From Acidobacteriota bacterium (lineage in GTDB: Bacteria > Acidobacteriota > Aminicenantia > Aminicenantales > Saccharicenantaceae): a stretch of DNA of 64,000 bases. The DNA is taken from assembly GCA_022711665.1 (NCBI GenBank), contig JAKLEN010000005.1:261-64260 (forward strand), given 5' to 3'. Positions within the stretch are counted from its first letter, which is position 1. Every line of letters begins with the position of its first letter. Position numbers and translations under genes: made by a program. The notes under the pieces are model-generated. The model was not told the origin of the DNA. It saw nothing but the letters and a program-made list of their open reading frames with translations, and made no database searches. Positions 44,901 to 58,665 of this stretch are shown here, one piece after another.

Positions 44901-44929
44901 TTGACTTTGCGGGGGGCTCCTGATATAAA
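44901..44929 (+). promoter_or_regulatory. sigma70-type promoter (TTGACT-N17-TATAAA) 10 nt upstream of the STAS gene ATG
   Basis: The ORF track treated the TTG of the -35 as a start codon. Confidence 0.5.
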
Positions 44930-44939
44930 AAATCCTGAC

Positions 44940-45299
44940 ATGGCGACACCCCTGATTATTAAAACCCGCGAAGTCTCGAGCATCGTCGTCTTCGATATCG
45001 AAGGCGAGATCAGCCGCCAGGACACGCCCCAGGTCACGCTCTCCAGCCTGGTCCAGGACGAGCTCGATCGCGGCCGGCGCAACATCCTCCTCGATCTCTC
45101 CGGCGTGGGCTTCATCGACAGCTACGGCGTCGGCGAGATCCTGGCCAGCTATAAATCCATCCAGAACCTCGGCGGCAGGCTCAAGCTCTGCCGGATCTCG
45201 CCCAAGCTCCTCCTGATCTTCAAGATCACCGGGCTCGACCGGGTCCTCGACATCCGTGAGGACTGCAGCCGGGCCCTGGAGAGCTTCAGCCAGGCCTGA
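44940..45299 (+). CDS. STAS-domain anti-sigma-factor antagonist (SpoIIAA/RsbV-like)
   Basis: The 119-aa protein has the conserved phosphorylatable serine context LDLSGVGFIDSYGVGEI. Confidence 0.8.
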   Translation: MATPLIIKTREVSSIVVFDIEGEISRQDTPQVTLSSLVQDELDRGRRNILLDLSGVGFIDSYGVGEILASYKSIQNLGGRLKLCRISPKLLLIFKITGLDRVLDIREDCSRALESFSQA

Positions 45300-45328
45300 T
45301 CTTCGGGGCGCCGGAGAGGGGAGGCCGC

Positions 45329-47884
45329 GTGACCGACGGCCGGCTCGAACGCCTGTTGCGGGGCTTCGGCGACGTCCGGGGCCGCGAAGCCCGGGCGGCC
45401 CTGGCCCTGTCGGCCTACTTCTTCCTGATCACGGCCGCCTTCTATATCATCAAGCCGGTCAAGGAGAGCCTGCTCATCGGCATCCATCCGGCCTGGTGGT
45501 CGTACGCCGACCTGGCCACGGCCCTGCTCATCGGCTTCGTCGTCGCCCTCAACGCCAGGCTCCTCGACCGCCTGCCGCGGCGCACCTATCTCACGGCCTC
45601 GCTCCTGTTCTTCGTGGCCAGCCTGCTCGTTTTCTGGCTCGTCTTCGACATGATCCGGACGAGCCAGGTCCAGACGCCCGTGGCCGACTCTTCGGGCATC
45701 CTCTTCCTCCTCTGGGCCCAGACGGTCATCCTCAGGGCGCCGCTCGTTCCGGTCATCGTCTTCAGCTTCTGGGCCGACGTGTTCATCGCCATGGCCGTGA
45801 CCCAGTTCTGGATCGCCGTCAACGACGTCCTCCACGCCCACCAGGCCAAGCGGCTGGTCGGCCTGTTCGTCACGGGAGGCCTGGTCGGCGGCATCGCCGG
45901 AGCGGCCATCGCCTTCCTGGCCACCACGCTCAAGGCCGTCAAGGTCGAGACCCTGCTCCTCGTCTGCCCAGTCCTGCTCCTCCTGGCCCTGGTGACGGTC
46001 AACTTCGTCTACGCCGGGCGCCAGAGGATCGACGCCGCGGCCGGGGACGGGCGCATCGGCCCGGCGGCCGGGGCCGGCGCCCCGGCCGGGTTCGGCCAGG
46101 TCCTCCGGCACCGCTACCTCCGGCTCCTGGCGGCCATGCTGGCCTCGGCCATCCTGGCCGGGACCCTGATCAACTACCAGTTCAAGACGGCCGTCAAGAG
46201 CGCCTATCCCGGCGACCAGGCCCGGACCTCCTACATCGCCGGCTTCCTGCTCGTCATCCTGGCCGTCTCGACCGTCTTCCACCTCCTGACGACCGACCGC
46301 TTCCTCAAGACCTATGGCATCCGCTGGGCCATCTCGCTCGCGCCGCTGGCCCTGCTCCTCGGCTCGGCGGCCGTCTTCGTCATCCCGGCCGTCCTGGCGC
46401 TGCCCTGGGCCTCGCTCGTCCGGGGGGCCGACAAGGGCTTCGACAACACCCTCAGCCAGTCCGTCCGCGAGCTCCTCTACATCCCTGTGCCGGCGGACGT
46501 CAAGTACCGGGCCAAGATCTTCATCGACATGTTCGTCAGCAAATTCGCCACCGGCTGCGGCGCCCTGGTGTTCCTGGGCCTGCGGGCCGTCCGCAATTTC
46601 GATTACCGCGCCGGCCAGGACCTGGCTATCCTCCGCGAGATCGGCGTGCTGACCGTCGCCGCCGTCCTCGTCTGGCTGGTCCTGACCCGCCTGGTCTATC
46701 GCGAGTACCCGGCCGTCCTGAAGCAGCCCATCCGCCGCAAGTGGACCCCGGCCGACGAGGTCATCCGCGAGCACGTCGACGAGGACCTGACCCTCAAGGT
46801 CTTCAATACCATCCAGAGCCGGGAGCGGAGCACGACCCTCTATCTCATGAACATCTTCGACCTGGTCCGGCGCCGGGACCTGACCCCCGACCTCAGGGGC
46901 CTGCTCGGGCTCAAGAGGGACGAGATCAAGGCCCGGGGCATGGACGCCCTCTTCGATGTCGGCGGCGCGGCCTTCTTCCCCGGGCTCGAGGAGGCCGTCG
47001 ACGATCCGGCCTTCCGCCGGGAGATCGAGCTCGTCTTCCTCCTGCCGGTCTACCAGGAGATCATGGCCCAGCGGCTGGGAGAGATGGCGGCCTCCCCGGC
47101 CGAGCTCGACCGCATCGAGGTGGCCAAGCTCATTGGCCGCATGGTCCCCAACCCGCCCACGATCGAGGCCCTGGGCCGGCTGCTGCGGGACCCCTCGGCG
47201 GAGGTCGCCCTCTACGCCCTGGAGAGCGCCGCCGTGCACCGCCACCCCGGCCACGTGCCCCTGATACTGGATCAGCTGGCCAATCCCATGCTCCGGGCCG
47301 CGGCCCAGACGGCGTTGGCCGCCTACGGGCCGGGCGTCGCGGCCCTGGTCGCCCCGGCCCTGGCTTCGGACGGGACGCCCGTCGAGATCCGCCGGGCCCT
47401 GCCCGAGGTCCTGGCCCGCCTCGGCACCCAGACCGCCGCCGACATCCTGCTCGACGGGCTGGGCCGCCGCGACGAGGCCCTGGAACAGGCCCTGGTCGAC
47501 GCCCTGGCCAAGATCCGGCTCGACCGGCCCGAGATCCGCTTCTCCCACAAGGCGGTCCGGCTGGAGCTGCTGGGCCTCGTCCGGAGGACCTGCGAGATCG
47601 TCCTGGACCCGCCGGCCGGCCCGCCGGCCGAGGCCAGGGCGCTACTCGATATCCGGCTCAAGCGGGTCTTCGACCTCCTGACGCTCCTCTACCCGCCGGA
47701 GGACATCGTCAAGGCCTACCAGAATATCCTGCAGGGGACGGCCCAGTCGACCGACTACTCGCTCGAGCACCTGGACATGCTTCTCGACCGGGAGCTCAAG
47801 GGCCTGCTCCTGCCCCTGGTCGACGCCGGCCTGTCGCCCGAGGAGCGGGCCCAGCGCCTGCGCCGGGCCCTGAGGTTGAAATGA
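45329..47884 (+). CDS. TLC-family (ATP/ADP-translocase-like, Npt-type) transporter domain fused to C-terminal HEAT/PBS-lyase-like repeats
   Basis: A GTG start is preceded by GAGAGGGGAGG. The N-terminal ~440 aa is polytopic, with the TLC-like opening motif FFLITAAFYIIKPVKESLLI. The C-terminal ~400 aa consists of Leu/Ala-rich repeats. Confidence 0.7.
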   Translation: MTDGRLERLLRGFGDVRGREARAALALSAYFFLITAAFYIIKPVKESLLIGIHPAWWSYADLATALLIGFVVALNARLLDRLPRRTYLTASLLFFVASLLVFWLVFDMIRTSQVQTPVADSSGILFLLWAQTVILRAPLVPVIVFSFWADVFIAMAVTQFWIAVNDVLHAHQAKRLVGLFVTGGLVGGIAGAAIAFLATTLKAVKVETLLLVCPVLLLLALVTVNFVYAGRQRIDAAAGDGRIGPAAGAGAPAGFGQVLRHRYLRLLAAMLASAILAGTLINYQFKTAVKSAYPGDQARTSYIAGFLLVILAVSTVFHLLTTDRFLKTYGIRWAISLAPLALLLGSAAVFVIPAVLALPWASLVRGADKGFDNTLSQSVRELLYIPVPADVKYRAKIFIDMFVSKFATGCGALVFLGLRAVRNFDYRAGQDLAILREIGVLTVAAVLVWLVLTRLVYREYPAVLKQPIRRKWTPADEVIREHVDEDLTLKVFNTIQSRERSTTLYLMNIFDLVRRRDLTPDLRGLLGLKRDEIKARGMDALFDVGGAAFFPGLEEAVDDPAFRREIELVFLLPVYQEIMAQRLGEMAASPAELDRIEVAKLIGRMVPNPPTIEALGRLLRDPSAEVALYALESAAVHRHPGHVPLILDQLANPMLRAAAQTALAAYGPGVAALVAPALASDGTPVEIRRALPEVLARLGTQTAADILLDGLGRRDEALEQALVDALAKIRLDRPEIRFSHKAVRLELLGLVRRTCEIVLDPPAGPPAEARALLDIRLKRVFDLLTLLYPPEDIVKAYQNILQGTAQSTDYSLEHLDMLLDRELKGLLLPLVDAGLSPEERAQRLRRALRLK

Positions 47885-47902
47885 CCGGACGCGTCATCTA
47901 GA

Positions 47903-49603
47903 ATGACGGCGGAGAGAACGCCCATGGCCAACCTTTACATCTACCCGAAGTCGGGGGAGCCCTCGACCTTCCCGCTGGCCGGGCGCCGCGTCACAGTCGG
48001 CCGCTCATCGGCCAACGACATCGTCCTGTCCGACCAGTTCAGCTCGGGCGTCCACGCCGTCATCGCCCCGACCGAGCACGGCTACGCCCTCATCGACCAG
48101 GGCAGCAAGAACGGCACCTTCGTCAACGGCCGGCGCGTCAACGGCGAGATCGACCTGGCCCGGGGCGACGAGATCCTGATCGGCTCGACCCGCTTCTTCT
48201 TCGACAAGGATTTCCAGCCGCCCGTCGAGACCGTCGAGGGCACGACCTTCACCCACAGCTCGAACACGATCATCCAGGTCAAGGACATCCTCAGGAAGAC
48301 GCCGGGGACCGGGGTCATCATGAAGACGCCTGGCGGCGGGCTCGACCTGGAGCGCCTGCAGAAGGACCAGAAGACGAGCTCGGTCCTGACGGCCGTCAGC
48401 CAGGCCCTGATCTACCACATGCCGCTGGAGAAGCTCCTCGGCCACATCATGGACGTCCTCATCCAGCACCTGCCGATGGACCGCGGCGTCCTGATGATCA
48501 AGAACGAGGCCACCGAGGCCCTCGAGCCCAAGGTCGTCCGCATCCAGAACGGCGCCCTGCGGAACCAGAGCATCTTCGTCAGCCAGACCATCGTCCGGAC
48601 GGCCCTGGAGCGCAACTCGGCCATCCTCATCTCCGACATCCAGGCCGACGAGGACCTGCGCGAGCAGTTCAGCGTCATCCAGGCCCGGATCCACTCGGCC
48701 ATGTGCGTGCCCCTTTGGAACAACCAGGACATCATCGGCCTCATCTACTGCGACCGGGCCTCGCTCCTGGAGCAGTTCAGCGAGGACGACCTGCGGCTGC
48801 TGACCCTTCTCGGCAACCTGGCCGCGGTCAAGATCGAGAACGCCCGTCTCTATGAACAGGCCCTGGAGAAGGCCCGCCAGGACCGCGAGCTGGCCCTGGC
48901 CACCCAGATCCAGATGAACTTCCTGCCCCGGACCGACCCCGACTTCGCCCCCTACGAGGTCAGCGGCAGCGCCCGGGCCTGCCGCCATGTCGGCGGGGAC
49001 TATTTCGACTATATCGCCGTCGACAAGGACCGCCTGGCCCTGGTCATCGCCGACGTCTCGGGCGTCGGCGTCAGCGCCTCGTTGCTCATGGCCTCGCTGC
49101 GGGGCGGCCTGCACGAGCGCTTCCCGGGCGTCATCGACCTGGCCCAGGTGGCTTCCCACCTGAACGATTTCGTCTACGCCAGCTCGGACAGCCATCTGTT
49201 CATCTCCTTCTTCCTGGCCATCCTCGACCGGACCCGGGACGAGCTCAGCTACGTCAACGCCGGCCACAATCCGCCCCTCGTCGTCGGCCGCAAGGGCCCG
49301 GCCAAGTCCCTGGAGACGACCGGGCTGTGCCTGGGCATGTTCCCCGGCCAGGCTTACCGTGAGGAGAAGGCCGGGCTGGCCCCCGGCGACATCCTCTGCC
49401 TCTACACGGATGGCATCGTCGAGAGCCGGGCCGGGGGCGGCGAGGAATACGGCGAGAAGCGCCTGGCCGACAAGGTCCGGGAGCTGCGCGGCCGCCCGGC
49501 CCGGGAGATCCGCGACCGGCTCTTCGAGGACGTCTTCGCCTTCAGCGCCTGCGACGAAGCCGGCGACGACATGACACTCGTCGTCGTCAAGCGGAACCCA
49601 TGA
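47903..49603 (+). CDS. FHA-GAF-PP2C (SpoIIE/RsbU-type) serine phosphatase
   Basis: The FHA domain (RVTVGRSSANDIVLSD...GTFVNGRRV) is followed by a GAF-like middle region and the PP2C motifs (GGDYFDY, DVSGVG, YTDGIVE). The alternative start is the ATG at 47924. Confidence 0.8.
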   Translation: MTAERTPMANLYIYPKSGEPSTFPLAGRRVTVGRSSANDIVLSDQFSSGVHAVIAPTEHGYALIDQGSKNGTFVNGRRVNGEIDLARGDEILIGSTRFFFDKDFQPPVETVEGTTFTHSSNTIIQVKDILRKTPGTGVIMKTPGGGLDLERLQKDQKTSSVLTAVSQALIYHMPLEKLLGHIMDVLIQHLPMDRGVLMIKNEATEALEPKVVRIQNGALRNQSIFVSQTIVRTALERNSAILISDIQADEDLREQFSVIQARIHSAMCVPLWNNQDIIGLIYCDRASLLEQFSEDDLRLLTLLGNLAAVKIENARLYEQALEKARQDRELALATQIQMNFLPRTDPDFAPYEVSGSARACRHVGGDYFDYIAVDKDRLALVIADVSGVGVSASLLMASLRGGLHERFPGVIDLAQVASHLNDFVYASSDSHLFISFFLAILDRTRDELSYVNAGHNPPLVVGRKGPAKSLETTGLCLGMFPGQAYREEKAGLAPGDILCLYTDGIVESRAGGGEEYGEKRLADKVRELRGRPAREIRDRLFEDVFAFSACDEAGDDMTLVVVKRNP

Positions 49604-50043
49604 TAACGGAGCGGGGGAGGGCCGTGATCGGACCGGAGCCGCGGGAGCTGCGGGTCCCGGCCCGGATCACGGAGGTCGACCGCATCAGGGCCTTCCTCCG
49701 CGAGGCCATCGCCGGCCTGCCGCTCGACGAGGAGGACCGGCTCCGGGTCGAGCTGGCCCTCCACGAGATCTGCGTCAACATCGCCCGCTACGCCTATCCC
49801 CGGGGCCGCAAGGGGGACATGATCGTCCGCATCTGGCAGGATGGCGACTCCCTCTACGTCGAGGTCCGGGACTCGGGCATACCCTTCAACCCCGTCCGCA
49901 AAAAGAACCCCGACCTGAAGGTCAAGCTGCGCCGCGGCCTCCCCGGCGGCCTGGGCGTCTACTTCTTCAAGACGCTCATGGACGGCCTGTCGTACCGGCG
50001 GGCCGGCGGCCAGAACATCCTGACAGTCCGCAAGGCCCTCTGA
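49600..50043 (+). CDS. anti-sigma regulatory factor / serine protein kinase of the RsbW/SpoIIAB family (GHKL ATPase fold)
   Basis: It overlaps the upstream stop (ATGA). The HATPase_c motifs are EICVNIARYA and DSGIPFNP...GGLGVYF. Confidence 0.75.
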   Translation: MITERGRAVIGPEPRELRVPARITEVDRIRAFLREAIAGLPLDEEDRLRVELALHEICVNIARYAYPRGRKGDMIVRIWQDGDSLYVEVRDSGIPFNPVRKKNPDLKVKLRRGLPGGLGVYFFKTLMDGLSYRRAGGQNILTVRKAL

Positions 50044-50898
50044 TCAATAGAGGACCTTGGCCTCGCCGTTGACCTTGATCAGCCGGCCGATCTCGTCCAG
50101 GACGAGGTCCCGGCGGACCAGGACGGCCCGGATCTCCTCGTCGGTCAGGTAGGCGCCGACGGCCGAGCGGACGGCGGCGAAGTCGAGGGCCCTGACCCTG
50201 GCCACCACGGCCCGGGGCAGCTCGCTCATGAGCTTCGGCCCGTCGGGCGACTTGGCCGAGTAGAGGAGGCTCCTGAGGAAGCGGCCCGAGGTCCGGAACG
50301 AGCGCGAGTGGTCGATCAGCACCATCCGCCAGTCGGCGGTGATCAGGATCTGGTTCAGGTGCCGGTCCTCGTTGGCGATGAGGTTGTCGAAGAGCCGCTG
50401 GAGGTAGGTGGCCCGGTTCCAGGCCGGGACCTGCCGCGGCGGGATCTTGAGGCCCCGGTCCTCCTTGTCCCGCAGCGACATGCAGCCGTCGACCCAATAC
50501 TGGCAGGACCCCCGCTCGTCGCGGAAGCGGCGCTCGACGGTGGGCGGCACCAGCTCCAGGCCGAGGAGCTTGTCCAGGCGGTAGGCGGCGATCTCGTACT
50601 GCCAGCCCTCCCAGTAGCCGCCCATGCGGCCCTGGGCGTTCTTCCACAGCCCGCGGTGCCTGACGCCGCCGAGCTCGAGCATCAGGACCCAGGGGGAGGT
50701 CACTGCTTCGGCGCCCGTCATCTGCCGACTCTCGCTCTCGACGACCACGGCCTCCGCCAGGAAAGCCTCCCAGCGGCCGCGCTGGGCCAGGTCCTCGGCC
50801 CGGAACTGCGGCGGCGCGGCCGGGTCCTCGCAGCCGGCCGGGAGGGCGGCCGCCAGGGCCGCGGCCAGGGCCAGGATGACGGCCGACCGCGGGCTCAA
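50044..50898 (-). CDS. exported lipoprotein with an atypical-kinase-like domain (PI3/PI4-kinase-like catalytic-loop signature DRHxN...IDHS), paralogue 1
   Basis: A TTG start is preceded by GGAGG. The lipobox is LPAGC. WKNAQG...WQYEIAAYRLDKLLGLELVPP resembles the PI3K Lys/alphaC region. IANEDRHLNQILITADWRMVLIDHSRSF has the spacing of the PI3K DRHxxN...IDFG motif. The kinase assignment is an inference from motifs, not from a search. Confidence 0.6.
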   Translation of the reverse strand: MSPRSAVILALAAALAAALPAGCEDPAAPPQFRAEDLAQRGRWEAFLAEAVVVESESRQMTGAEAVTSPWVLMLELGGVRHRGLWKNAQGRMGGYWEGWQYEIAAYRLDKLLGLELVPPTVERRFRDERGSCQYWVDGCMSLRDKEDRGLKIPPRQVPAWNRATYLQRLFDNLIANEDRHLNQILITADWRMVLIDHSRSFRTSGRFLRSLLYSAKSPDGPKLMSELPRAVVARVRALDFAAVRSAVGAYLTDEEIRAVLVRRDLVLDEIGRLIKVNGEAKVLY

Positions 50899-51725
50899 TA
50901 GACAACCTCCTGGCCCTGTTCCCCGATCATCCGGGCGATCTCCCGGACGAGCAGGTCGCGGCGGGACAGGACGGCCCGGATCTCCCGGTCAGTGAGGGTC
51001 GCGCCGACGGCGGCGCGGATGTTGTCGAAGGTCAGCGTGCCGATCCGGTCGACGAACCAGCGGGGCAGGCGCCGGAAAAGGAACGGCTCCCCGGCGTCCC
51101 CTCTCTTGATGCCGTCGCGGCCGAACATCAGCCGCTTGGAGAATTCGCCGCCGCTGCGGAAGGCCCGGGAGTGGTCGAAGAGGATCATCCGCCAGTCCTC
51201 GGTGTAGAGTATATTCTGCTGGGTCCGGTCTTCGTTGGCGATCAGGCTGTCCCAGGCCCGGGCCAGGTACTTCATCTTTTCCGTGCGGTCCTGGGCCTCG
51301 TCCGGGATGCGGATGCCTTCCTCCACGAGCTTGAGCAGGCTGTATTTATTCTCGGCCCAAAGGACCAGGGCGCCCTTCCGGCCCCGGAAGGTGCGCTCGA
51401 CGGCCGGCGGGACCATGTTCAGCCCCAGGAGCTTGTCCAGGCGGTAGGCGGCGATCTCGTACTGCCAGCCTTCGAGATGGCCGTTCTGCAGGCCGCGGGG
51501 GTTCTTCCAGGCGGCCTTGCGCTCGACGCCGTCCTTCTCCAGGTAGAGCCGCCAGGGACGGGTCACGCCTTCGCCGATCTCCTCCGAGCGGACGATCCGG
51601 GCCGTCAGCAGGAAGTCCTCCATGGCCGCCCGCCGGGCGACCTCTTCGGCCGTGAACTGGGCGGAGGCGACGGACGGCCAGGCCGCCGCCAGGACCAGGG
51701 ACAGGAGAACGAGGGATCGTTTCAT
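50895..51725 (-). CDS. exported protein with the same atypical-kinase-like domain, paralogue 2 (catalytic His replaced, DRTQQN)
   Basis: A signal peptide ...VASA|QF is followed by WQYEIAAYRLDKLLGLNMVPP and IANEDRTQQNILYTEDWRMILFDHSRAF. The start is TGAATG-coupled to the upstream gene. Confidence 0.6.
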   Translation of the reverse strand: MKRSLVLLSLVLAAAWPSVASAQFTAEEVARRAAMEDFLLTARIVRSEEIGEGVTRPWRLYLEKDGVERKAAWKNPRGLQNGHLEGWQYEIAAYRLDKLLGLNMVPPAVERTFRGRKGALVLWAENKYSLLKLVEEGIRIPDEAQDRTEKMKYLARAWDSLIANEDRTQQNILYTEDWRMILFDHSRAFRSGGEFSKRLMFGRDGIKRGDAGEPFLFRRLPRWFVDRIGTLTFDNIRAAVGATLTDREIRAVLSRRDLLVREIARMIGEQGQEVVY

Positions 51726-53180
51726 TCAGGCCTCCCCGGCGGCCGCGTCCGTGGCCGCTTTCCGCCCGGCGTAGGCGGGAATGATCTTGAGGCAGATCGC
51801 CAGGAGCACGATGACTGCGACGACGTTGAGAAGGGCGAAGCGCTCGACCGGCAGGCCCAGGAGCCCGGTGCCGATAAGGACGGCCAGGGCCGAGAGCGTG
51901 TCTCCGCCGCGGACGAAGAACGTATCGATGGCCGCCTTGGCCTTGTACTTCTCCTCGCGCCGGGTGACAAGGAACAGGGCGGCCTTGGTCGTGTTCTGGA
52001 GGGAATAGTCGGTGCCGTTCTCCAGGGCCTTGACCCAGCGGACCAGGCCCAGGACGGCGCCGAAGGAGATGAGGGCGTAGCCGCCCAGGGCGAGCAGGGG
52101 CAGGACGAGCAGGGCCCCGTTGACGCCGATCCATTTGAAGATGCGCGAGACGAGGAAGAGCTGGATGACCAGGGCGATCAGGTTGGTCAGGAACTGGTAG
52201 TCCATGAAGGCGTCGTGGATGGCTTTCTCCGCCGGCTCGTTGGCCCCTTCCGGCGCCGGCGACGGAGCCGAGGCCGCGGAGGGGCCGGCGATCGACCGGT
52301 TGACCGTGGCCGTGGTGATGATGTACTCCCCGGTCGCGTTGACGAAATTGTAGAGCCCGATCATGAGCGCGATGAGCAGCAGGTAGCGGTTGCGGAAGAC
52401 GAGCCTGAAGCCGCCTCCGGCCCGGAGCGGCATCTCCTGGGTCTCGGCCCGGGCCCCGGCGCCGGCCTGGCCCCGTTCCCGGGCCGCCGCGACGGCCCGG
52501 ACCTCGCGGCGGTGGATATGCCGGGCCAGGAGGATGCAGACGAAAAGGATGATCCCGGCCAGGAGCATCAGCTTGAACTCCCAGTGGCTCCCCAACAGGT
52601 CCCGCAGCCGTTTCATGAACGGCAGCGTGGCCACCAGGCCGCCGGAGGTCGCTCCCAGGGCCACCAGCGGGAAGGCCCGCTTGCCGGCCTCGTCGGAGTA
52701 GAGGTCGTTGGCGAAACCCCAGAATTGGGCGATGACGAAATAATTGAAGATGCCGATCCAGATGAAGAACAGGATGCCCATGGGCCTGACGGCCATCCCG
52801 CCGAGGTCGAGCAGGTAGAACAGGGCCAGGTTGGAGATGAAGAAAGACGTCGTCCAGGTGATCAGCACGTGGCGCGGCACCCTGGAGGACAGGCGGCTGA
52901 AGGCCTTGACGACGAAGACGAAGAGCACCGCCTGGGCCCCGCTCAGGCAGCTCTTGACGACGGCCGAGTCCTTGTCCACGAGGAGGAGCGCCTCGCGCAG
53001 GGGCTTGAGGATATAGTAGGCCAGGAGCAACAGGAAGACGTTCAGGCCCAAGAGCAGGGCCTTGGGCGCCTCGCCTGGCCGGATGTCGGCGAAGAGCCGC
53101 AGGAACCGGTAGCCCGGGCTGTAGCGCTGCGGCGGCGCGACCGCGGCCGCCGCCTCGAGACGATCGGGCATTGGCGCCAT
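51726..53180 (-). CDS. TLC-family (ATP/ADP-translocase-like, Npt-type) membrane transporter
   Basis: It has 11-12 TM helices. KALLLGLNVFLLLLAYYILKPLREALLLVD matches the TLC N-terminal signature (K..L.LM.F.ILFNY.ILR..KD.L.V). It is paralogous to the N-terminal domain of 45329..47884. The likely true start is the ATG at 53171, which sits 9 nt after GGAGG. Confidence 0.7.
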   Translation of the reverse strand: MAPMPDRLEAAAAVAPPQRYSPGYRFLRLFADIRPGEAPKALLLGLNVFLLLLAYYILKPLREALLLVDKDSAVVKSCLSGAQAVLFVFVVKAFSRLSSRVPRHVLITWTTSFFISNLALFYLLDLGGMAVRPMGILFFIWIGIFNYFVIAQFWGFANDLYSDEAGKRAFPLVALGATSGGLVATLPFMKRLRDLLGSHWEFKLMLLAGIILFVCILLARHIHRREVRAVAAARERGQAGAGARAETQEMPLRAGGGFRLVFRNRYLLLIALMIGLYNFVNATGEYIITTATVNRSIAGPSAASAPSPAPEGANEPAEKAIHDAFMDYQFLTNLIALVIQLFLVSRIFKWIGVNGALLVLPLLALGGYALISFGAVLGLVRWVKALENGTDYSLQNTTKAALFLVTRREEKYKAKAAIDTFFVRGGDTLSALAVLIGTGLLGLPVERFALLNVVAVIVLLAICLKIIPAYAGRKAATDAAAGEA

Positions 53181-53192
53181 CCTCCGGCCCGG

Positions 53193-55058
53193 TCAGAACA
53201 GGACCCGGGCCTCGCCCAGGGTCCGGATCAGGCTGCGGATCTTGCGGATGAGAAGCGTCCGGCGGGCGTTGAGGGCCTCGATCTCTTCCCGGCCGAGGTA
53301 GGGACTCAGGTAAGCGGCGACGGCCTTGCCGTCCCAGGCCTGGAGGCGGGAGTAGAGGGCCCTGGAGCAGCTCCGGACCTGGCAGCCCGAGCCCTCGCCC
53401 TTGTCCGGGGCGAAGGCCTCGGAGAAGTCGACCCGATAGATCCGTTCGTCGCCCTCCCGGACGAGCGTGTCCTTGTCCCGGCGGCAGTCGTCGTTGACCA
53501 GGGCCTGGAAGACGGTCAGGTCGGCCAGGGCCCGCTCGAAGGCCTGGCGGTCCCTTGGCTCGATCCCGGCCTCCCGCCGCTCGGCCAGCGAACGGGCGCC
53601 GGAGACGAACGCCTGCACGGCCCCGGCGACGCCCTCGACCGTTCGTTCGACGATCGGCGGCACGGCTTCGATGTCGAGGTATGTGCTCAGGGCGTAAGCG
53701 GCCAGGTCGTAGCGCCAGCTGTCGGCCAGGGAGTCGGGCCGCCGCCGGTCGATGTACTTGAACAGGGCCGGCCGGGAGAACCCCTCCGATTCGAGGGTCA
53801 GGCGCCAGGCATCGGTGCGGCCGCCGACGCCGGGACCGCGGCCCGTGACGGCGGCGGTCCGCAGGAACGTCTCCATCTCCCGCGGCGACAGGGGCCGCGG
53901 CGGGGGCGGCCGGATGCCGCTGCGGGCGGCCACTTCCTCCGTCTCGCCCCAGACCTTGAACTCGCCGCGCTCATAGACCAGGGCCGAGGGGATGCCGCCG
54001 TAGCTGCCGGAGATGCCCGTGTCCATTATCCAGACCTTGTCCTGGAACCGGGTGACGCGGCTCTTCTCGACGACGGCGCTCGAGCCGTGGTTGAAGCGGA
54101 AGTAGTTATGGCCGATGACCATGGCCCTGGCGCCCAGGTTGGCCAGGGTCCGGTCAATCTCGGCCTGGGCCGCGGCCTCGCTCTTGGTGGCCAGGCCCCG
54201 GAACCAGAGAGGGCTGTCGGGGTCGTAGACGAGCCGGGGATGGAACGGCTTGCCGTAATCCTGGGGGTTGCGCATGCGCCCCTGGAAGAATTGGAGCTCG
54301 GTGCGTATGACTTGGTTGATCTCCCGGAGGGGCCACTTGGAGACGGCCTCGCTGATCCCGCCGTGGACGTAAACGATGTCGTCGATCTTGATGACCGAGT
54401 TCTGCCGCACCAGCCAGTCGCCGCAGGCCTTGTTGAAGCCCAGAATGTAGGCCCGGCGGGCCTCGGGGTCCCTGGCGGTCAGGGCCTTGTGCCAGAATCC
54501 GGCCAGGTCCTCGTCGGCATAGATGTCGAGGCCTTCGATCTCGGCCTTGCGGCGCTCCTCGGCCGGGAGCGTCCTGAGGAATTCCGCCTCCCGCTTGCGG
54601 CGGAAGTCCGCCGGCAGGAAGGCCACGAACTGCTCGACGGGCACGTAATCCGGATAGTCCAGGACTATGCCGGTGATGTTCATCTCCTCATGGTTGCCGA
54701 GGAGCATGTGGACGGCGCCGCCGGCTTCGGCCGCTTCGCCCTGCAGCCGCCGGATGAGATCGAGGATGTCCTTGGCCCGCGGGCCCCGATCCAGGACATC
54801 GCCGAGCTGGACGAGGTGGGTCCGGCCCCCGATCCAGTGGAGCGAAGCGTCGACCAGCCCGATCTGGGGATGGGCCAGGATGAAGACGAAGCGGTCGTAG
54901 TCGCCATGGAGGTCGGCCACGGCCACGACCCGGTCGACGCCGGTCCATTGATAGGGGATCTCGTCGGCCGGGGCGGGGCGGACCAGGAGGGCGAGGGCCA
55001 GCGCCAGCCCCGAAAGGAAGGGACGCAGCTCCGGACGGCCTTTTCTGCGGCGGAACAT
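53193..55058 (-). CDS. exported fusion protein: PPP-family metallophosphoesterase (ApaH/PrpA-like) N-terminal domain plus a degenerate atypical-kinase-like C-terminal domain (paralogue 3)
   Basis: A signal peptide is followed by the MPP motifs DLHGDYDRF, GDVLDRGP and GNHEEMN. The C-terminal domain (AAYALSTYLDIEAVPPIVER...LVNDDCRRDKDTLVRE...VDFSEAF) aligns to the other two paralogues with catalytic residues lost. Confidence 0.65.
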   Translation of the reverse strand: MFRRRKGRPELRPFLSGLALALALLVRPAPADEIPYQWTGVDRVVAVADLHGDYDRFVFILAHPQIGLVDASLHWIGGRTHLVQLGDVLDRGPRAKDILDLIRRLQGEAAEAGGAVHMLLGNHEEMNITGIVLDYPDYVPVEQFVAFLPADFRRKREAEFLRTLPAEERRKAEIEGLDIYADEDLAGFWHKALTARDPEARRAYILGFNKACGDWLVRQNSVIKIDDIVYVHGGISEAVSKWPLREINQVIRTELQFFQGRMRNPQDYGKPFHPRLVYDPDSPLWFRGLATKSEAAAQAEIDRTLANLGARAMVIGHNYFRFNHGSSAVVEKSRVTRFQDKVWIMDTGISGSYGGIPSALVYERGEFKVWGETEEVAARSGIRPPPPRPLSPREMETFLRTAAVTGRGPGVGGRTDAWRLTLESEGFSRPALFKYIDRRRPDSLADSWRYDLAAYALSTYLDIEAVPPIVERTVEGVAGAVQAFVSGARSLAERREAGIEPRDRQAFERALADLTVFQALVNDDCRRDKDTLVREGDERIYRVDFSEAFAPDKGEGSGCQVRSCSRALYSRLQAWDGKAVAAYLSPYLGREEIEALNARRTLLIRKIRSLIRTLGEARVLF

Positions 55059-55192: not shown

Positions 55193-56587
55193 ATGAAAGG
55201 ACTCGCGACCATGAGACAACGAACGGATCTCGCGGCGGGGGGCCGGCGGGGGAGGGGACCGGCGGCCCGCCTGGCGCTGGCGGCCGGTCTGGCGGCGGTC
55301 CTGGGGCTGGCCCTGGCGTCCTGCGCCGGTCGGGAGAGGCCGGCCGGGCCCGGGACGACGGCGGCCGCGGCCCGGGTCAAGCCCGGCGTCGAGGTTTTCC
55401 TGGAGAAGCACCTCGACCTGGTCAAGGGCAAGCGGGTCGGCTTGATAACAAACCAGACCGGCACGGACGCCGGGCTGCGTTCGACCGTGGAGCTCTTCCA
55501 GTCCAACCCCGCCATCCGGCTGGTCGCCCTTTACGGCCCCGAGCACGGCGTCCGGGGCGACGCCCAGGCCGGCGTCTACGTGCCGTTCTATTACGACCAG
55601 GCCTATAAGCTGCCCGTATTCAGCCTCTACGGACAATCCTTCAAGCCCGATCCGGGCATGCTCAGGAACATAGACGAGTACATGCGCTCCTTCGACACCC
55701 GGGAGGCGGGCAAGGTGCCGGAGGGGGGCATGGTCAAGGACGTCGACGTGCTCGTCTTCGACATCCAGGACGTCGGGACTCGCGTCTACACCTACGTCGC
55801 CACCATGGCCTACGCCATGCAGGCCGCGGCCGAGGCCGGGCTCGACTTCATCGTCCTGGACCGGCCTGCGCCGATCAACGGCGTCGACATGGAAGGGGCC
55901 ATCCTCGAGTACCCGGAGCTCAGCTCGTTCATCGGGCTGTTCCCGATCCCGCTGCGGTTCGGCATGACGGCCGGCGAGCTGGCCCGCCTGTTCAACGACA
56001 AGTTCCTGGCCCGCACGGCCAAGCTGACGGTCATCCCCGTGGAGGGCTGGTCGCGGTCGATGTGGTTCGACGAGACCGGGCTGCCGTGGGTCATCCCCTC
56101 GCCCAACATGCCGACCCTGGACACGGCGACCGTCTACCCCGGTCTGGTGGCCATCGAGGGCACCAACCTGTCGGAGGGCCGGGGCACGACCCGGCCGTTC
56201 GAGCTCTTCGGCGCGCCGTGGCTCGACGGCCACGCCCTGGCCGCCCGGCTGAACGCCCTCGGCCTGCCGGGGGTCCGCTTCCGGGAAGCCTGGTTCACGC
56301 CGTCCTTCTCCAAGTTCCAGGGCGAGCTCTGCGGCGGCTGCCAGATTCACGTGACCGACCGGACGGCCTTCCGCCCGGTGGCCACAGTCCTTCACATCAT
56401 CAGGACGGTGCGGGACGCGGCCCCGGGCAAGTTCGCCTTCCACGCCGATTACTTCGACAAGGTCATGGGCACGGCCTCCGTCCGCAAGGCCCTGGAAGCG
56501 GGGACGGACGTGGCCGCCATCCTGGAGAGCATGCGGCCCGGCCTGGAATCTTTCGCCGCTTTGCGCCGGGCTTATCTGCTCTATTAA
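55193..56587 (+). CDS. DUF1343-family lipoprotein (NamZ-like exo-beta-N-acetylmuramidase family)
   Basis: The lipobox is LASCAG. KRVGLITNQTGTD, the conserved DUF1343 N-terminal motif, is present. Confidence 0.7.
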   Translation: MKGLATMRQRTDLAAGGRRGRGPAARLALAAGLAAVLGLALASCAGRERPAGPGTTAAAARVKPGVEVFLEKHLDLVKGKRVGLITNQTGTDAGLRSTVELFQSNPAIRLVALYGPEHGVRGDAQAGVYVPFYYDQAYKLPVFSLYGQSFKPDPGMLRNIDEYMRSFDTREAGKVPEGGMVKDVDVLVFDIQDVGTRVYTYVATMAYAMQAAAEAGLDFIVLDRPAPINGVDMEGAILEYPELSSFIGLFPIPLRFGMTAGELARLFNDKFLARTAKLTVIPVEGWSRSMWFDETGLPWVIPSPNMPTLDTATVYPGLVAIEGTNLSEGRGTTRPFELFGAPWLDGHALAARLNALGLPGVRFREAWFTPSFSKFQGELCGGCQIHVTDRTAFRPVATVLHIIRTVRDAAPGKFAFHADYFDKVMGTASVRKALEAGTDVAAILESMRPGLESFAALRRAYLLY

Positions 56588-56609
56588 AGAAAGAAGGGGT
56601 CAAACCTAA

Positions 56610-56935
56610 GGTTCTTCTCCCGATTCCGGGAAGTCCCTCTCTCGGGCTCTAGCTCGGGGATGTCCTCTTGCTCCCCGGCCGGCGCGTAGCGGACTCTTGG
56701 GAGCGGAGGTCAGGATCACGGCCGAGCGCTCGAGGCCGGGATCCTGAGAAATATCTTCATAAAGCGCTTTCTCCCGATATCTCCCAGAAGCATGGCTCCG
56801 AGTCGCTCCGCCATGCTTCTGATGGTCGCTTCGAGGACTTCGCTCCCTGCCGGCCCCCCTCCTCCAGCAACGGGGAACTGCGAGGACAATCTCCTCGCCG
56901 CCTCGAGAGTGAATCCCGGAAATGGGAGAAGAACC
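56610..56935. mobile_element. MITE-like structured repeat, copy 3 (full length, with both TIRs)
   Basis: The left TIR is GGTTCTTCTCCCGATTCCGGGAAGTCCCTCTCTCG and the right TIR is CGAGAGTGAATCCCGGAAATGGGAGAAGAACC. The 9-mer AAACCTAAG is present at 56602-56610 and again at 56961-56969. The copy sits inside a split palindrome related to 41595-41645. Confidence 0.7.
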
Positions 56936-57093
56936 AAACTTAGGCTTTTCAGAAAGGATTAAACCTAAGTCTTTTTACTTTTTCGCCCTATACCCGCCGT
57001 AAAAAAGTTAAAGGGTTCAGGTTTGACCCCGTCTTTGCTAGAATAAAGCCCTTCCCCTTAACGGGACGATCATCAGGCAAGGAGATTGACGCG

Positions 57094-58665
57094 ATGACGA
57101 TGAACTCTCCCCGTTACGCCCTGGCCAACCCCCTGTCTCTTGTCCTGGACAAGCCGGCCGCCGATTTTACCCGGGCGGACCTGCTCAAGGTCGTCGAGGC
57201 CCGGCAGATCGAGCGCGTCACCTTTCATTACCTGGCTATCGACGGCAAGCTCAAGGAACTGACCATCCCGGTGACCGACCGCTATCACCTGGACGCCGTC
57301 CTGGCCGAGGGGGAGCGGGCCGACGGCTCGTCGCTGTTCAAGGGCATGGTCGATATGGGCCTGTCGGACCTCTACATCGTGCCCGTCTACCGCTCGGCCT
57401 TCTTCAATCCCTTCGATGAGGGCAGCCTGGACTTCGTCTGCCGCTATCTCGCCCAGGACGGCTCGCCGGCCTCCTTCACCTATGACGGCATCCTGGCCCG
57501 GGCCGCGGCCCTGTTCCGCAAGGTCTCCGGCCTGGAACTCCAGGCCATGGGCGAGCTCGAGTTCTACCTGCTGACGACGCCCGCCGACCGCTCCTACCCG
57601 GTCGAGGACCACCGGGGCTATCACGGCTCGGCGCCGTTCGCCAAGAGCGGCCCCATCCTCCACGAGATGGTCCGGCACATCGCCTCGGTCACCGGCGCGG
57701 TGAAATACGCGCATTGCGAGAACGGCGTCATCGATCCCGTCCGCAGCGACCTGGCCGAGATCAACGGCCGCCTGGCCGAGCAGCTCGAGATCGAGTTCGT
57801 GCCCCGGCCCGTCGAGGAAGCGGCCGACGACCTCGTCCTCGGCCGCTGGATCATCCGCAACACCGCCTTCCGGCACGGGGCCGTGGCCACCTTCACGCCC
57901 AAGCTCGAGGAGGGCATCGCCGGCAGCGGCCTGCACTTCCACCTGGCCCTGGCGAAGGACGGGCGGAACATCATGCGCGCCCCGGACGGCCGGCTCTCGA
58001 CCGAAGCTCGCAAGCTCGTCGGCGGCCTGTGCCAGTACGCCGACTCCCTGACGGCCTTCGGCAACACAGTCTCGTCGGCCTACCTGCGTCTGGTCCCCAA
58101 TCAGGAAGCGCCGACCCGCATCTGCTGGAGCGACCTCAACCGCAGCGCCCTCATCCGCGTCCCCCTCGGCTGGTCCGGCGTCGCCGGCCTAGCCCGCCGG
58201 GTCAACCCGGCCGAGAGCCAGGACTTCGTCGACGACCGCGGCGGCCGGCAGACCGTCGAGATCCGCAGCCCGGACGGCAGCGCCCTCATCCACCTGACCC
58301 TGGCCGGGATCGCCATGGCCGCCAACTGGGCCTTCGGCGGCGACCGCTCCCTGTTCAGGGACTCCGGCCCGCTCGAGCTGGCCGAGAGCCTGTATGTCAA
58401 GGGCAACATTTTCGCCGATACCGAGCTGCTCAAGCGCCTGCCCGTCCTGCCGGCCAGCTGCGTCGAGTCCAGCCGGGTCCTGCTGGCGAAGCGCGGCCTC
58501 TACGAGCGCGACGGGATCTTCCCGCCGTCGGTCATCGATTACGCGGCCCGCAGGCTCGAGGCCGAGGACGACGAGTTCATGAACAAGCGCCTGTCCGATC
58601 TGCCGGCCCACGACCGGCTGCACGAGATCCGCAAGATCATGCATAAGGACCTGCACAAGCATTGA
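57094..58665 (+). CDS. glutamine-synthetase-family protein (catalytic-domain type, GSIII/GmaS-like)
   Basis: AAGGAG precedes the start. The GS catalytic motifs GSGLHFHLAL and AYLRLVPNQEAPT are present. Confidence 0.7.
   Translation: MTMNSPRYALANPLSLVLDKPAADFTRADLLKVVEARQIERVTFHYLAIDGKLKELTIPVTDRYHLDAVLAEGERADGSSLFKGMVDMGLSDLYIVPVYRSAFFNPFDEGSLDFVCRYLAQDGSPASFTYDGILARAAALFRKVSGLELQAMGELEFYLLTTPADRSYPVEDHRGYHGSAPFAKSGPILHEMVRHIASVTGAVKYAHCENGVIDPVRSDLAEINGRLAEQLEIEFVPRPVEEAADDLVLGRWIIRNTAFRHGAVATFTPKLEEGIAGSGLHFHLALAKDGRNIMRAPDGRLSTEARKLVGGLCQYADSLTAFGNTVSSAYLRLVPNQEAPTRICWSDLNRSALIRVPLGWSGVAGLARRVNPAESQDFVDDRGGRQTVEIRSPDGSALIHLTLAGIAMAANWAFGGDRSLFRDSGPLELAESLYVKGNIFADTELLKRLPVLPASCVESSRVLLAKRGLYERDGIFPPSVIDYAARRLEAEDDEFMNKRLSDLPAHDRLHEIRKIMHKDLHKH

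Follow-up and report, generated by a model that had tools for sequence, protein, structure and literature searches.

Fam20-like kinase paralogues, a phosphatase fused to a pseudokinase-type domain and a nucleotide-transporter homologue in one operon of Aminicenantes: a candidate phosphorylation module outside the cytoplasmic membrane

Fam20 kinases (PF06702) phosphorylate secreted proteins at S-x-E motifs or the xylose of proteoglycans, with a preference for Mn2+. Fam20 proteins include the kinase FAM20C, the pseudokinase FAM20A and the xylosylkinase FAM20B, and are treated as animal-specific (PMC9758233, PMC5865150), one survey regarding them as eukaryote- or Metazoa-specific (PMC9758233). 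In FAM20C, K271 and D478 bind ATP and metal, and Glu306 (Glu213 of ceFam20) is replaced by Gln258 in FAM20A (PMC5413348); in Fam20B, the Asp of a DRH triplet is the catalytic base and its His contacts the xylose substrate (PMC5865150). For the NTT family of nucleotide transporters, Major et al. 2017 (PMC5381601) described NTT-HEAT followed by cNBD in free-living bacteria, an arrangement to which no function has been assigned. Here we analysed a stretch of 64,000 nucleotides from an Acidobacteriota bacterium of the Aminicenantia (GCA_022711665.1, contig JAKLEN010000005.1, positions 261 to 64,260; hereafter the window), in which the minus strand of 50044-55058 carries four closely spaced genes in the order P3, transporter, P2, P1, with a 4-nt overlap between the start codon of P1 and the stop codon of P2:

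53193..55058, minus strand: P3, 621 amino acids (aa), predicted signal peptide, Shelph-like PPP metallophosphatase and C-terminal Fam20/PI4K-like pseudokinase-type domain (Pfam, AlphaFold2 (AF2) model, Foldseek)
53943..54941, minus strand: phosphatase domain of P3 (about aa 40-372), with GDxHG, GDxxDRG and GNHE (motif invariance)
53196..53888, minus strand: P3C, the kinase-like domain of P3 (aa 391-621), without the catalytic Asp (family hidden Markov model (HMM), 1e-72)
53469..53492, minus strand: catalytic-loop equivalent of P3C, DDCRRDKD (alignment)
51726..53180, minus strand: TLC484, a TLC/NTT-family nucleotide-transporter homologue of 484 aa between P3 and P2 (Pfam, NCBIfam)
50895..51725, minus strand: P2, 276 aa, Fam20-like kinase, predicted exported, complete conserved catalytic set (alignment, signal-peptide heuristic)
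51213..51236, minus strand: catalytic loop of P2, NEDRTQQN (alignment)
50044..50898, minus strand: P1, 284 aa, Fam20-like kinase paralogue, predicted exported, Asn183 replaced by Gln and Val at position 71 (alignment, AF2)
50350..50373, minus strand: catalytic loop of P1, NEDRHLNQ (alignment)

We favour, with moderate confidence, the view that this operon is an extracytoplasmic kinase/phosphatase module that would be fed with ATP by its TLC/NTT transporter, with P2 as an active kinase, P1 as its sister and P3 as a phosphatase-pseudokinase. P1, P2 and P3C are kinase-fold paralogues that belong to a bacterial branch of the Fam20/PI4KII-like fold, one that is large and has not been described before. 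The presence of three kinase-like paralogues in one operon, proposed in an initial annotation of the window, was borne out by identity, HMM and fold, and the motifs quoted there are all present in P1 (EDRHLNQILIT at aa 177, LIDHS at aa 194, WKNAQG at aa 85), P2 (EDRTQQNILYT at aa 165, LFDHS at aa 182, WKNPRG at aa 73) and P3 (DDCRRDKDTLV at aa 523, RVDFS at aa 542). P2 is 50% and P3C 33% identical to P1, the three domains align along their entire length and each matches the family HMM at E<=1e-72; a scan of the 64-kb window with this HMM found no copy beyond these three.

Relatives of known structure were sought with profiles searched against PDB sequences. A profile built from P1, P2 and P3C matched the FAM20A pseudokinase (1.3e-5) as well as FAM20C and FAM20B, and a 57-member family profile matched FAM20A (9e-17), DrFam20C (2e-12), FAM20C (2.6e-12), FAM20B (2.2e-10) and ceFam20 (1.7e-9), with PI4KII scoring only ~2e-4. 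Similarity to the Fam20 family across the kinase core is thus significant in these profile searches. The AF2 model of P1 (mean predicted local distance difference test score (pLDDT) 90.3) had PI4KIIalpha (4hnd) as its top Foldseek match (1.3e-7), together with DrFam20C1 (1.8e-7, template modelling score 0.59) and ceFam20. Single-protein matches to the domain libraries were weak yet consistent (Pfam PI3_PI4_kinase, HipA_2 and FAM198; NCBIfam SCO1664) and all fell below the curated cut-offs: P1 reached 14.4 bits against 27.1 for PF00454 (E 0.037), the three proteins reached 44.2, 25.8 and 25.9 bits against 172.4 for TIGR03843 (SCO1664; P1 1.5e-11, P2 6e-6, P3 5e-6), and HipA_2 (PF20613) matched at E about 0.03-0.04. 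At 50% identity, the family falls into 4091 clusters if matches up to E 1e-3 are counted, or 535 with E<=1e-30, and its named members are all annotated as 'hypothetical protein' or 'metallophosphoesterase'.

Fam20 proteins are therefore the best sequence relatives among solved structures, the homology spanning the FK strand, the ExxxxEIAAxxLDxxL helix, the N-x-DR loop, the DxxRxF 'DFG' motif and the C-terminal helix. The likeness extends to export by a signal peptide (called heuristically here), to a predicted location in an ATP-poor compartment that would need a nucleotide transporter, and to the coexistence of active and degenerate paralogues, as in the FAM20A/FAM20C pair. However, identity to Fam20 is only 13-17% and the window proteins stay below the Pfam cut-off; at the +5 position Fam20 has Glu, and the bacterial family has the Asn seen in PI3K and other protein kinases; the bacterial proteins, about 250 aa long against about 400 aa, lack the insertions and the disulfide pattern of Fam20; and P3C is fused to a phosphatase. 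The pseudokinase defect also differs, being Asp to Cys in P3C and Glu306 to Gln in FAM20A, and all window copies are acidic at the latter position. The family consensus NxDRNxGNxL...IDH(S/T)RAF resembles the catalytic and activation motifs of PI4KIIalpha/beta (PF00454), yet the lipid-kinase accessory regions are missing and the bacterial proteins are predicted to be exported rather than cytosolic and membrane-associated. SCO1664 (TIGR03843) and HipA_2 (PF20613), the best bacterial library matches though far below cut-offs, are not described as exported, nor as linked to NTT transporters or PPP phosphatases. The fold and its catalytic logic are thus already known from Fam20 and PI4KII. In the literature searched, we found no account of the bacterial family, of its export, of the phosphatase-pseudokinase fusion or of a recurrent coupling to NTT, and nothing relevant emerged on Fam20-like kinases that bacteria secrete or keep in the periplasm.

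Residue roles were assigned from HMM alignments and published Fam20 residue roles, using P1 numbering throughout:

position 71: counterpart of Fam20C K271, the presumed ATP-phosphate lysine
position 86: Lys of the Fam20 'FK' strand, second lysine
position 97: counterpart of Fam20C E306 (Q258 in FAM20A), alphaC Glu
position 178: counterpart of Fam20C D458, catalytic base
position 180: His of DRH, substrate contact
position 183: the +5 position, Glu in Fam20 and Asn in PI3K and other protein kinases
position 196: counterpart of Fam20C D478, DFG Asp

Conservation was counted over 134 full-length family representatives and, for fixation within each paralogue, over 121 orthologues each of P1, P2 and P3 that are 62-100% identical to the window copy. 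Among the representatives, D178 is present in 111, R179 in 112 and D196 in 133; position 183 is N in 106 and D in another 24; basic residues occupy position 71 in 109 and position 86 in 114; and position 180 varies (N 78, H 17, T 13). The initial annotation had allowed that the DRH/N positions might be generally variable and hence not catalytic, which holds for His180; D178, R179 and the +5 Asn are conserved and plausibly catalytic. Position 102 changes in step with position 86 (E when 86 is K/R, Q when it is H, N when it is Q), as expected of an interacting pair.

P2 carries the complete set, namely R71 (K/R in orthologues), K86, E97, E102, D178, R179, N183 and D196-H-S-R. Its loop reads N-E/D-D-R-T-Q-Q-N; D, R and N do not vary among the 121 orthologues, the TQQN stretch is invariant in 120-121/121 and fixed throughout the class, and all the catalytic residues of Fam20 have their equivalents (R71, K86, E97, D166 corresponding to family D178, and D184 corresponding to family D196). 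P2 is therefore probably a canonical, active kinase, as far as residues can tell. P1 keeps D178, R179, H180 and D196 and deviates at two positions, with Q183 in 114/121 orthologues (N at 182) and V71 in 118/121. Divergent Aminicenantes orthologues of P1 read NEDRHx[N/G]N, so that Q183 is a derived and chemically conservative change, and position 71 is variable within the P1 lineage. We regard P1 as a near-canonical, co-translated sister kinase of uncertain activity: as an enzyme it may be weakened or altered, or it may serve as a regulatory partner. Two other descriptions of P1 were considered and dropped: that of a Fam20A-like pseudokinase, given the conservative and derived nature of the Asn-to-Gln change and the variability of position 71, and that of a lipoprotein (LPAGC) as a general feature, a lipobox-like motif being found in only 13/121 orthologues. 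Median identity to the window copy in the same genomes was 59% for P1 and 60% for P2. The fixation of these motifs in about 120 orthologues, together with the equal rates of P1 and P2, points to stable specialisation rather than decay.

In P3C, Cys takes the place of the catalytic base (121/121 orthologues), F that of H197 and E that of R199; the domain retains D183, D196, K/R86, D97 and D/E102. Its F-S-E motif (DFSE) is conserved, and DDC, D183 and DFSE are invariant in the 121 close orthologues. In distant orthologues the loop reads DQCLDGTD, CERKELDD, SPSRELDD or NERIDTDD, while D183 and DFSE persist, and a 'DFSE' P3-like subfamily recurs in about 20/134 representatives. P3C is the fastest-evolving of the four protein units of the operon (median identity to the window copy in the same genomes 42%, the phosphatase domain having 50% and the transporter 56%), and the domain is retained across Aminicenantes, either fused to the phosphatase or encoded alongside it. 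An essential residue is therefore absent from a domain retained under purifying selection, as in kinase/pseudokinase pairs, and P3C looks like a bona fide pseudokinase-type domain, the only such copy of the three. Its defect does not involve the ATP lysine, which had been thought to survive only in P1 and P2: this residue is invariant in the three-way alignment (K57), P3 reading FKYIDR, and the 121 P3 orthologues have either K (82) or R (39) there.

The N-terminal domain of P3 matched Pfam Metallophos (6.5e-9, 36.9 bits against a cut-off of 21.5), and its motifs are invariant in 96 P3 orthologues (D49 H51 G52 D53; G86 D87 D90 R91 G92; G121 N122 H123 E124), as are H232 G234 (HGG) and G316 H317 (GH). 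In the AF2 model (pLDDT 84.8), the best Foldseek match was the Shewanella cold-active protein-tyrosine phosphatase 1v73 (8e-16, 24% identity), RLPH2 was also matched, and the C-domain was covered by PI4KII/PI3K matches. Motifs and metallophosphoesterase fold thus place the N-domain among the PPP (Shelph-like) phosphatases, GDxHG, GDxxDRG and GNHE being common to it, Shelph (1v73) and RLPH2 (5vjv). P3 differs from Shelph by a helical insertion (about aa 141-217) and by its pseudokinase-type C-domain, and fusions of Shelph or RLPH2 phosphatases to kinase-like domains are not known. Another Aminicenantes clade has two genes in place of P3, one for a metallophosphatase of 351 aa and one for a P3C-type protein of 269 aa, the start of the second overlapping the stop of the first (L087, 211-2062), and this arrangement occurs in many loci (e.g. 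L045, L047, L051). Fusions of this phosphatase to canonical kinase domains are found in other phyla (P0174, from a Myxococcota metagenome-assembled genome, P0177, P0180, P0245). Since both split forms and fusions to canonical kinases occur elsewhere, the association of phosphatase and kinase fold is ancient and the dead kinase domain derived.

A basic n-region followed by a hydrophobic core was found at the N-termini of 118/121, 120/121 and 120/121 proteins in the three orthologue groups, the Sec-type signal peptide being conserved in 120/121 P2 orthologues, and signal-peptide-like N-termini occur in 118/141 family representatives. On this heuristic, P1, P2 and P3 are exported, and like Fam20 proteins they would enter the export route through an N-terminal signal.

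TLC484 belongs to the Pfam TLC family (PF03219; 2.2e-15, 56.9 bits against a cut-off of 21), as does the 851-aa NTT-HEAT protein encoded next to the operon (48.0 bits against 21), to whose transporter domain TLC484 is paralogous at 1e-22. TLC484 also matched the NCBIfam NTP/NDP exchange transporter (1.7e-13), at 50 bits against a cut-off of 387 and thus with no equivalog-level assignment, and the solved 'ADP,ATP carrier protein 1' 9j3n (4.6e-4). The four-gene operon of phosphatase-pseudokinase, TLC/NTT, P2 and P1 is conserved in about 50 Aminicenantes genomes; the order phosphatase/P3C, NTT, P2, P1, followed by a convergent RsbW gene, is kept in most of 80 Aminicenantes loci, and the order of the kinase operon persists even when the NTT-HEAT/SpoIIE block lies on the opposite side (loci L002-L082). 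A locus scan based on the three-paralogue alignment returned Aminicenantes only, and the broader taxonomy comes from a metagenome scan with a phosphatase-kinase fusion profile, which yielded 80 loci, 52 of them with a kinase-like gene. A TLC/NTT(-HEAT) gene was present in 30 of these 52 kinase-bearing loci, and in 26 of the 34 with >=3 kb of flank, whereas the chance of meeting a family of only a few gene copies per genome in a ~20-kb window would be about 1%, a rough estimate with no formal null. The gap between kinase and NTT genes was <=206 nt in 20/30 loci and both lay on the same strand in 21/30. The order NTT-HEAT, cyclic nucleotide monophosphate (cNMP)-binding protein, phosphatase-kinase was found in L090, L099, L100 and L107, so that the NTT-HEAT(-cNBD) arrangement of free-living bacteria (PMC5381601) stands directly upstream of phosphatase-kinase fusions; in the window, the partner of NTT-HEAT is a STAS/RsbW/SpoIIE partner-switching set and not cNBD.

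In the mechanism that we propose, the TLC/NTT transporter would exchange cytoplasmic ATP for the ADP made outside the membrane, in the way that Golgi-resident Fam20 kinases require nucleotides to be supplied; a fuel supply is proposed for the transporter because the three proteins are predicted to be exported to a compartment normally without ATP. This direction (ATP out, ADP in) in a free-living organism would differ from that of characterised NTTs, which import host nucleotides (intracellular parasites/plastids). P2, possibly with P1, would phosphorylate an envelope or secreted substrate (protein, glycan or lipid), and P3 would reverse this phosphorylation, P3C most likely docking or targeting the phosphatase to the kinases or to the substrate. 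In a broader form, which we put forward tentatively, free-living bacteria would run an ATP-dependent phosphorylation cycle outside the cytoplasmic membrane, with ATP/ADP exchange by NTT(-HEAT) proteins, control by cNMP or partner switching, and Fam20-like kinases opposed by Shelph-like phosphatases bearing pseudokinase targeting domains.

Several observations weigh against the proposal of an ATP-fed extracytoplasmic module. P1, P2 and P3 all stay below the Pfam gathering scores of Fam20C, PI3_PI4_kinase and HipA_2, and PF06702 (Fam20C) is absent among the Pfam matches of P1, P2 and P3 at E<=0.1. We presume that position 71 corresponds to K271 from a weak stretch of the FAM20B alignment together with the FAM20C sequence. 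Signal peptides were called with a simple heuristic and not with a trained predictor such as SignalP. P1 may be fully active, its Asn-to-Gln change being conservative and position 71 variable in its lineage. TLC484 is only a distant relative of NTTs, so that homology does not fix the substrate it transports, and all characterised NTTs are importers (PMC5381601). The in-operon TLC gene is missing from a few Aminicenantes loci (L026, L039, L067), and the surroundings of some other members of the family are free of transporter genes (L083, L085). More generally, kinase activity, export and ATP transport are predictions for these proteins, drawn from sequence and gene context.

Alternative explanations concern either the state of the three kinase domains or the purpose of the system. 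According to the initial annotation, the catalytic motif decays stepwise from P1 to P2 to P3, P1, which keeps DRH, being the sole active kinase, and P2 (partly degenerate) and P3C (fully so) being pseudokinase scaffolds. P1 alone does have a literal D-R-H triplet, as in PI3K and Fam20, and P3C is indeed without the catalytic Asp; but the His on which the ranking depends, a substrate contact in Fam20B (PMC5865150), occurs in only 17/134 representatives, P2 keeps every conserved catalytic position with an invariant TQQN loop, and it is P1 that lacks the +5 Asn and basic residue 71, the two being equally conserved. This makes P1 as the sole active enzyme very improbable: of the two proposed pseudokinase-like partners only P3C stands, P2 being probably active, and the idea of a kinase/pseudokinase pairing, in keeping with a FAM20A/FAM20C pair among the closest solved relatives, survives without its decay gradient, each state being stable. 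Of a pairing in which the pseudokinase would bind the kinase and activate it allosterically, the sequence shows the linkage in one operon and the 4-nt overlap of P2 and P1. The opposite possibility is that all three domains are active through non-canonical or relocated residues, in the manner of POMK or SelO, with D523/D524 beside Cys525 of P3C replacing the base or with another reaction being catalysed. The invariance of the DDC triplet, D183 and DFSE in close P3C orthologues, the retention of K86, D97 and D/E102 and the recurrence of the 'DFSE' subfamily, which speaks for a domain that is maintained and not dying, would fit this explanation; yet the loops of distant orthologues drift, with nothing conserved at or beside the base position, as expected without selection for catalysis, and P3C is the fastest-evolving unit. 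We consider it improbable.

A purpose in nucleotide scavenging, in which the exported metallophosphatase and kinase-fold proteins would process or capture external nucleotides for import by NTT, also seems unlikely, if slightly less so. Nucleotide degradation is common among periplasmic metallophosphoesterases, and the tight linkage of a transporter to exported proteins of nucleotide-binding fold fits import as well as export, the direction of all characterised NTTs being import (PMC5381601). Against scavenging, the P3 phosphatase is nearest to protein-tyrosine-specific PPP enzymes (Shelph, RLPH2) and not to 5'-nucleotidases, the strict conservation of base, Asn and DFG Asp in P2 and most of the family argues for phosphotransfer and not mere binding, and the closest homologues (Fam20) phosphorylate macromolecules. 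A more serious candidate, although we hold it with doubt, is that the kinases act on an envelope glycan or lipid, as a Fam20B-like xylosylkinase or a PI4K-like enzyme would, and that P3 removes the phosphate. Fam20B and basal animal Fam20s are sugar kinases (PMC5865150), the kinase fold also matches lipid kinases, and NamZ, involved in peptidoglycan recycling, is a conserved divergent neighbour of the operon; on the other hand, the phosphatase fused in P3 falls in a protein-phosphatase clade, and sequence does not discriminate between substrates. This explanation concerns the substrate only and is compatible with the kinase/phosphatase module that we favour.

If the model is true, it would account for the widespread NTT genes of free-living bacteria, contradict the assumption that no ATP-driven kinase chemistry takes place in the periplasm, and give the animal Fam20 secretory kinases a counterpart, or a source, among prokaryotes; should ATP export prove right, the novelty of the system would go considerably beyond that of a variant of a known fold. 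The linkage of kinase, phosphatase and NTT genes gives the transporter a concrete, testable function in supplying the cell envelope with ATP, and it suggests that the envelope of bacteria is regulated in a way not recognised before. The family moreover offers a natural series of variants for the study of pseudokinase origins, from canonical P2 through Asn-to-Gln P1 and base-less P3C to subfamilies without the Lys/Glu pair.

The operon is flanked by a convergent operon on one side and by a divergent gene pair on the other:

44901-45299, plus strand: STAS, convergent operon (Pfam)
45329-47884, plus strand: NTT-HEAT transporter, 851 aa, convergent operon (Pfam)
47903-49603, plus strand: FHA-GAF-SpoIIE/PP2C phosphatase, convergent operon (Pfam)
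49600-50043, plus strand: RsbW-like HATPase_c_2, convergent operon (Pfam)
55193-58665, plus strand: NamZ (exo-beta-N-acetylmuramidase) and a 523-aa glutamine-synthetase-family protein, divergent from P3 (Pfam)

The convergent operon (44901-50043) joins a partner-switching set to a nucleotide-transporter homologue, and no sigma factor is seen with it; a cNMP-binding protein occupies the corresponding place in other phyla. In the proposed mechanism, NTT-HEAT and the partner-switching set, or cNBD in other phyla, would regulate nucleotide flux. RsbW (plus strand, ending at 50043) and P1 (minus strand, ending at 50044) converge with zero intergenic bases, and a scan for promoters and terminators, otherwise uninformative, placed the one terminator-like hairpin of the minus-strand operon within RsbW (49926-49909). 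Since the genes abut and the hairpin lies within RsbW, transcripts of the two operons would overlap as antisense RNA. The NamZ and glutamine-synthetase-family genes are syntenic with the kinase operon in about 25-28 Aminicenantes loci.

Among the variant loci, some of those with a split P3 carry three short kinase genes and not two (L037, L040, L041, L050, L051). The same P1 orthologue (P0053) occurs in two assemblies (L001 and L002), of which only one has the full operon; in the other, a P2-P1 pair stands without phosphatase or transporter, with DUF6599 and DUF362 genes upstream, a contrast that reflects either a rearrangement or an assembly difference. One subfamily is without the Lys86/Glu102 pair and has Q86 and N102, with a DTD[PA]NLTN loop followed by DFTR, and keeps D178, N183 and D196 (e.g. 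L117, 14268-16643; L118, 7341-9719; L109; L134; L142); its genes are often duplicated in tandem immediately downstream of NTT-HEAT. A second variant has H86 and Q102 (L099, L100). Covariation of positions 86 and 102 in these variants suggests an altered nucleotide-binding mode. The 671-aa representative P0122 has three kinase-like stretches and exceeds the Fam20C and HipA_2 cut-offs as a whole protein (29.4 bits against 26.8 and 29.8 against 27, respectively), no single stretch passing either cut-off alone, so that some family members could receive inconsistent labels from public annotation pipelines. Finally, the 599-aa representative P0247 is a fusion of an N-terminal kinase-like domain with PD40/WD40-like beta-propeller repeats (TolB/DPP-IV-like periplasmic modules), which is another predicted extracytoplasmic architecture of the kinase family.

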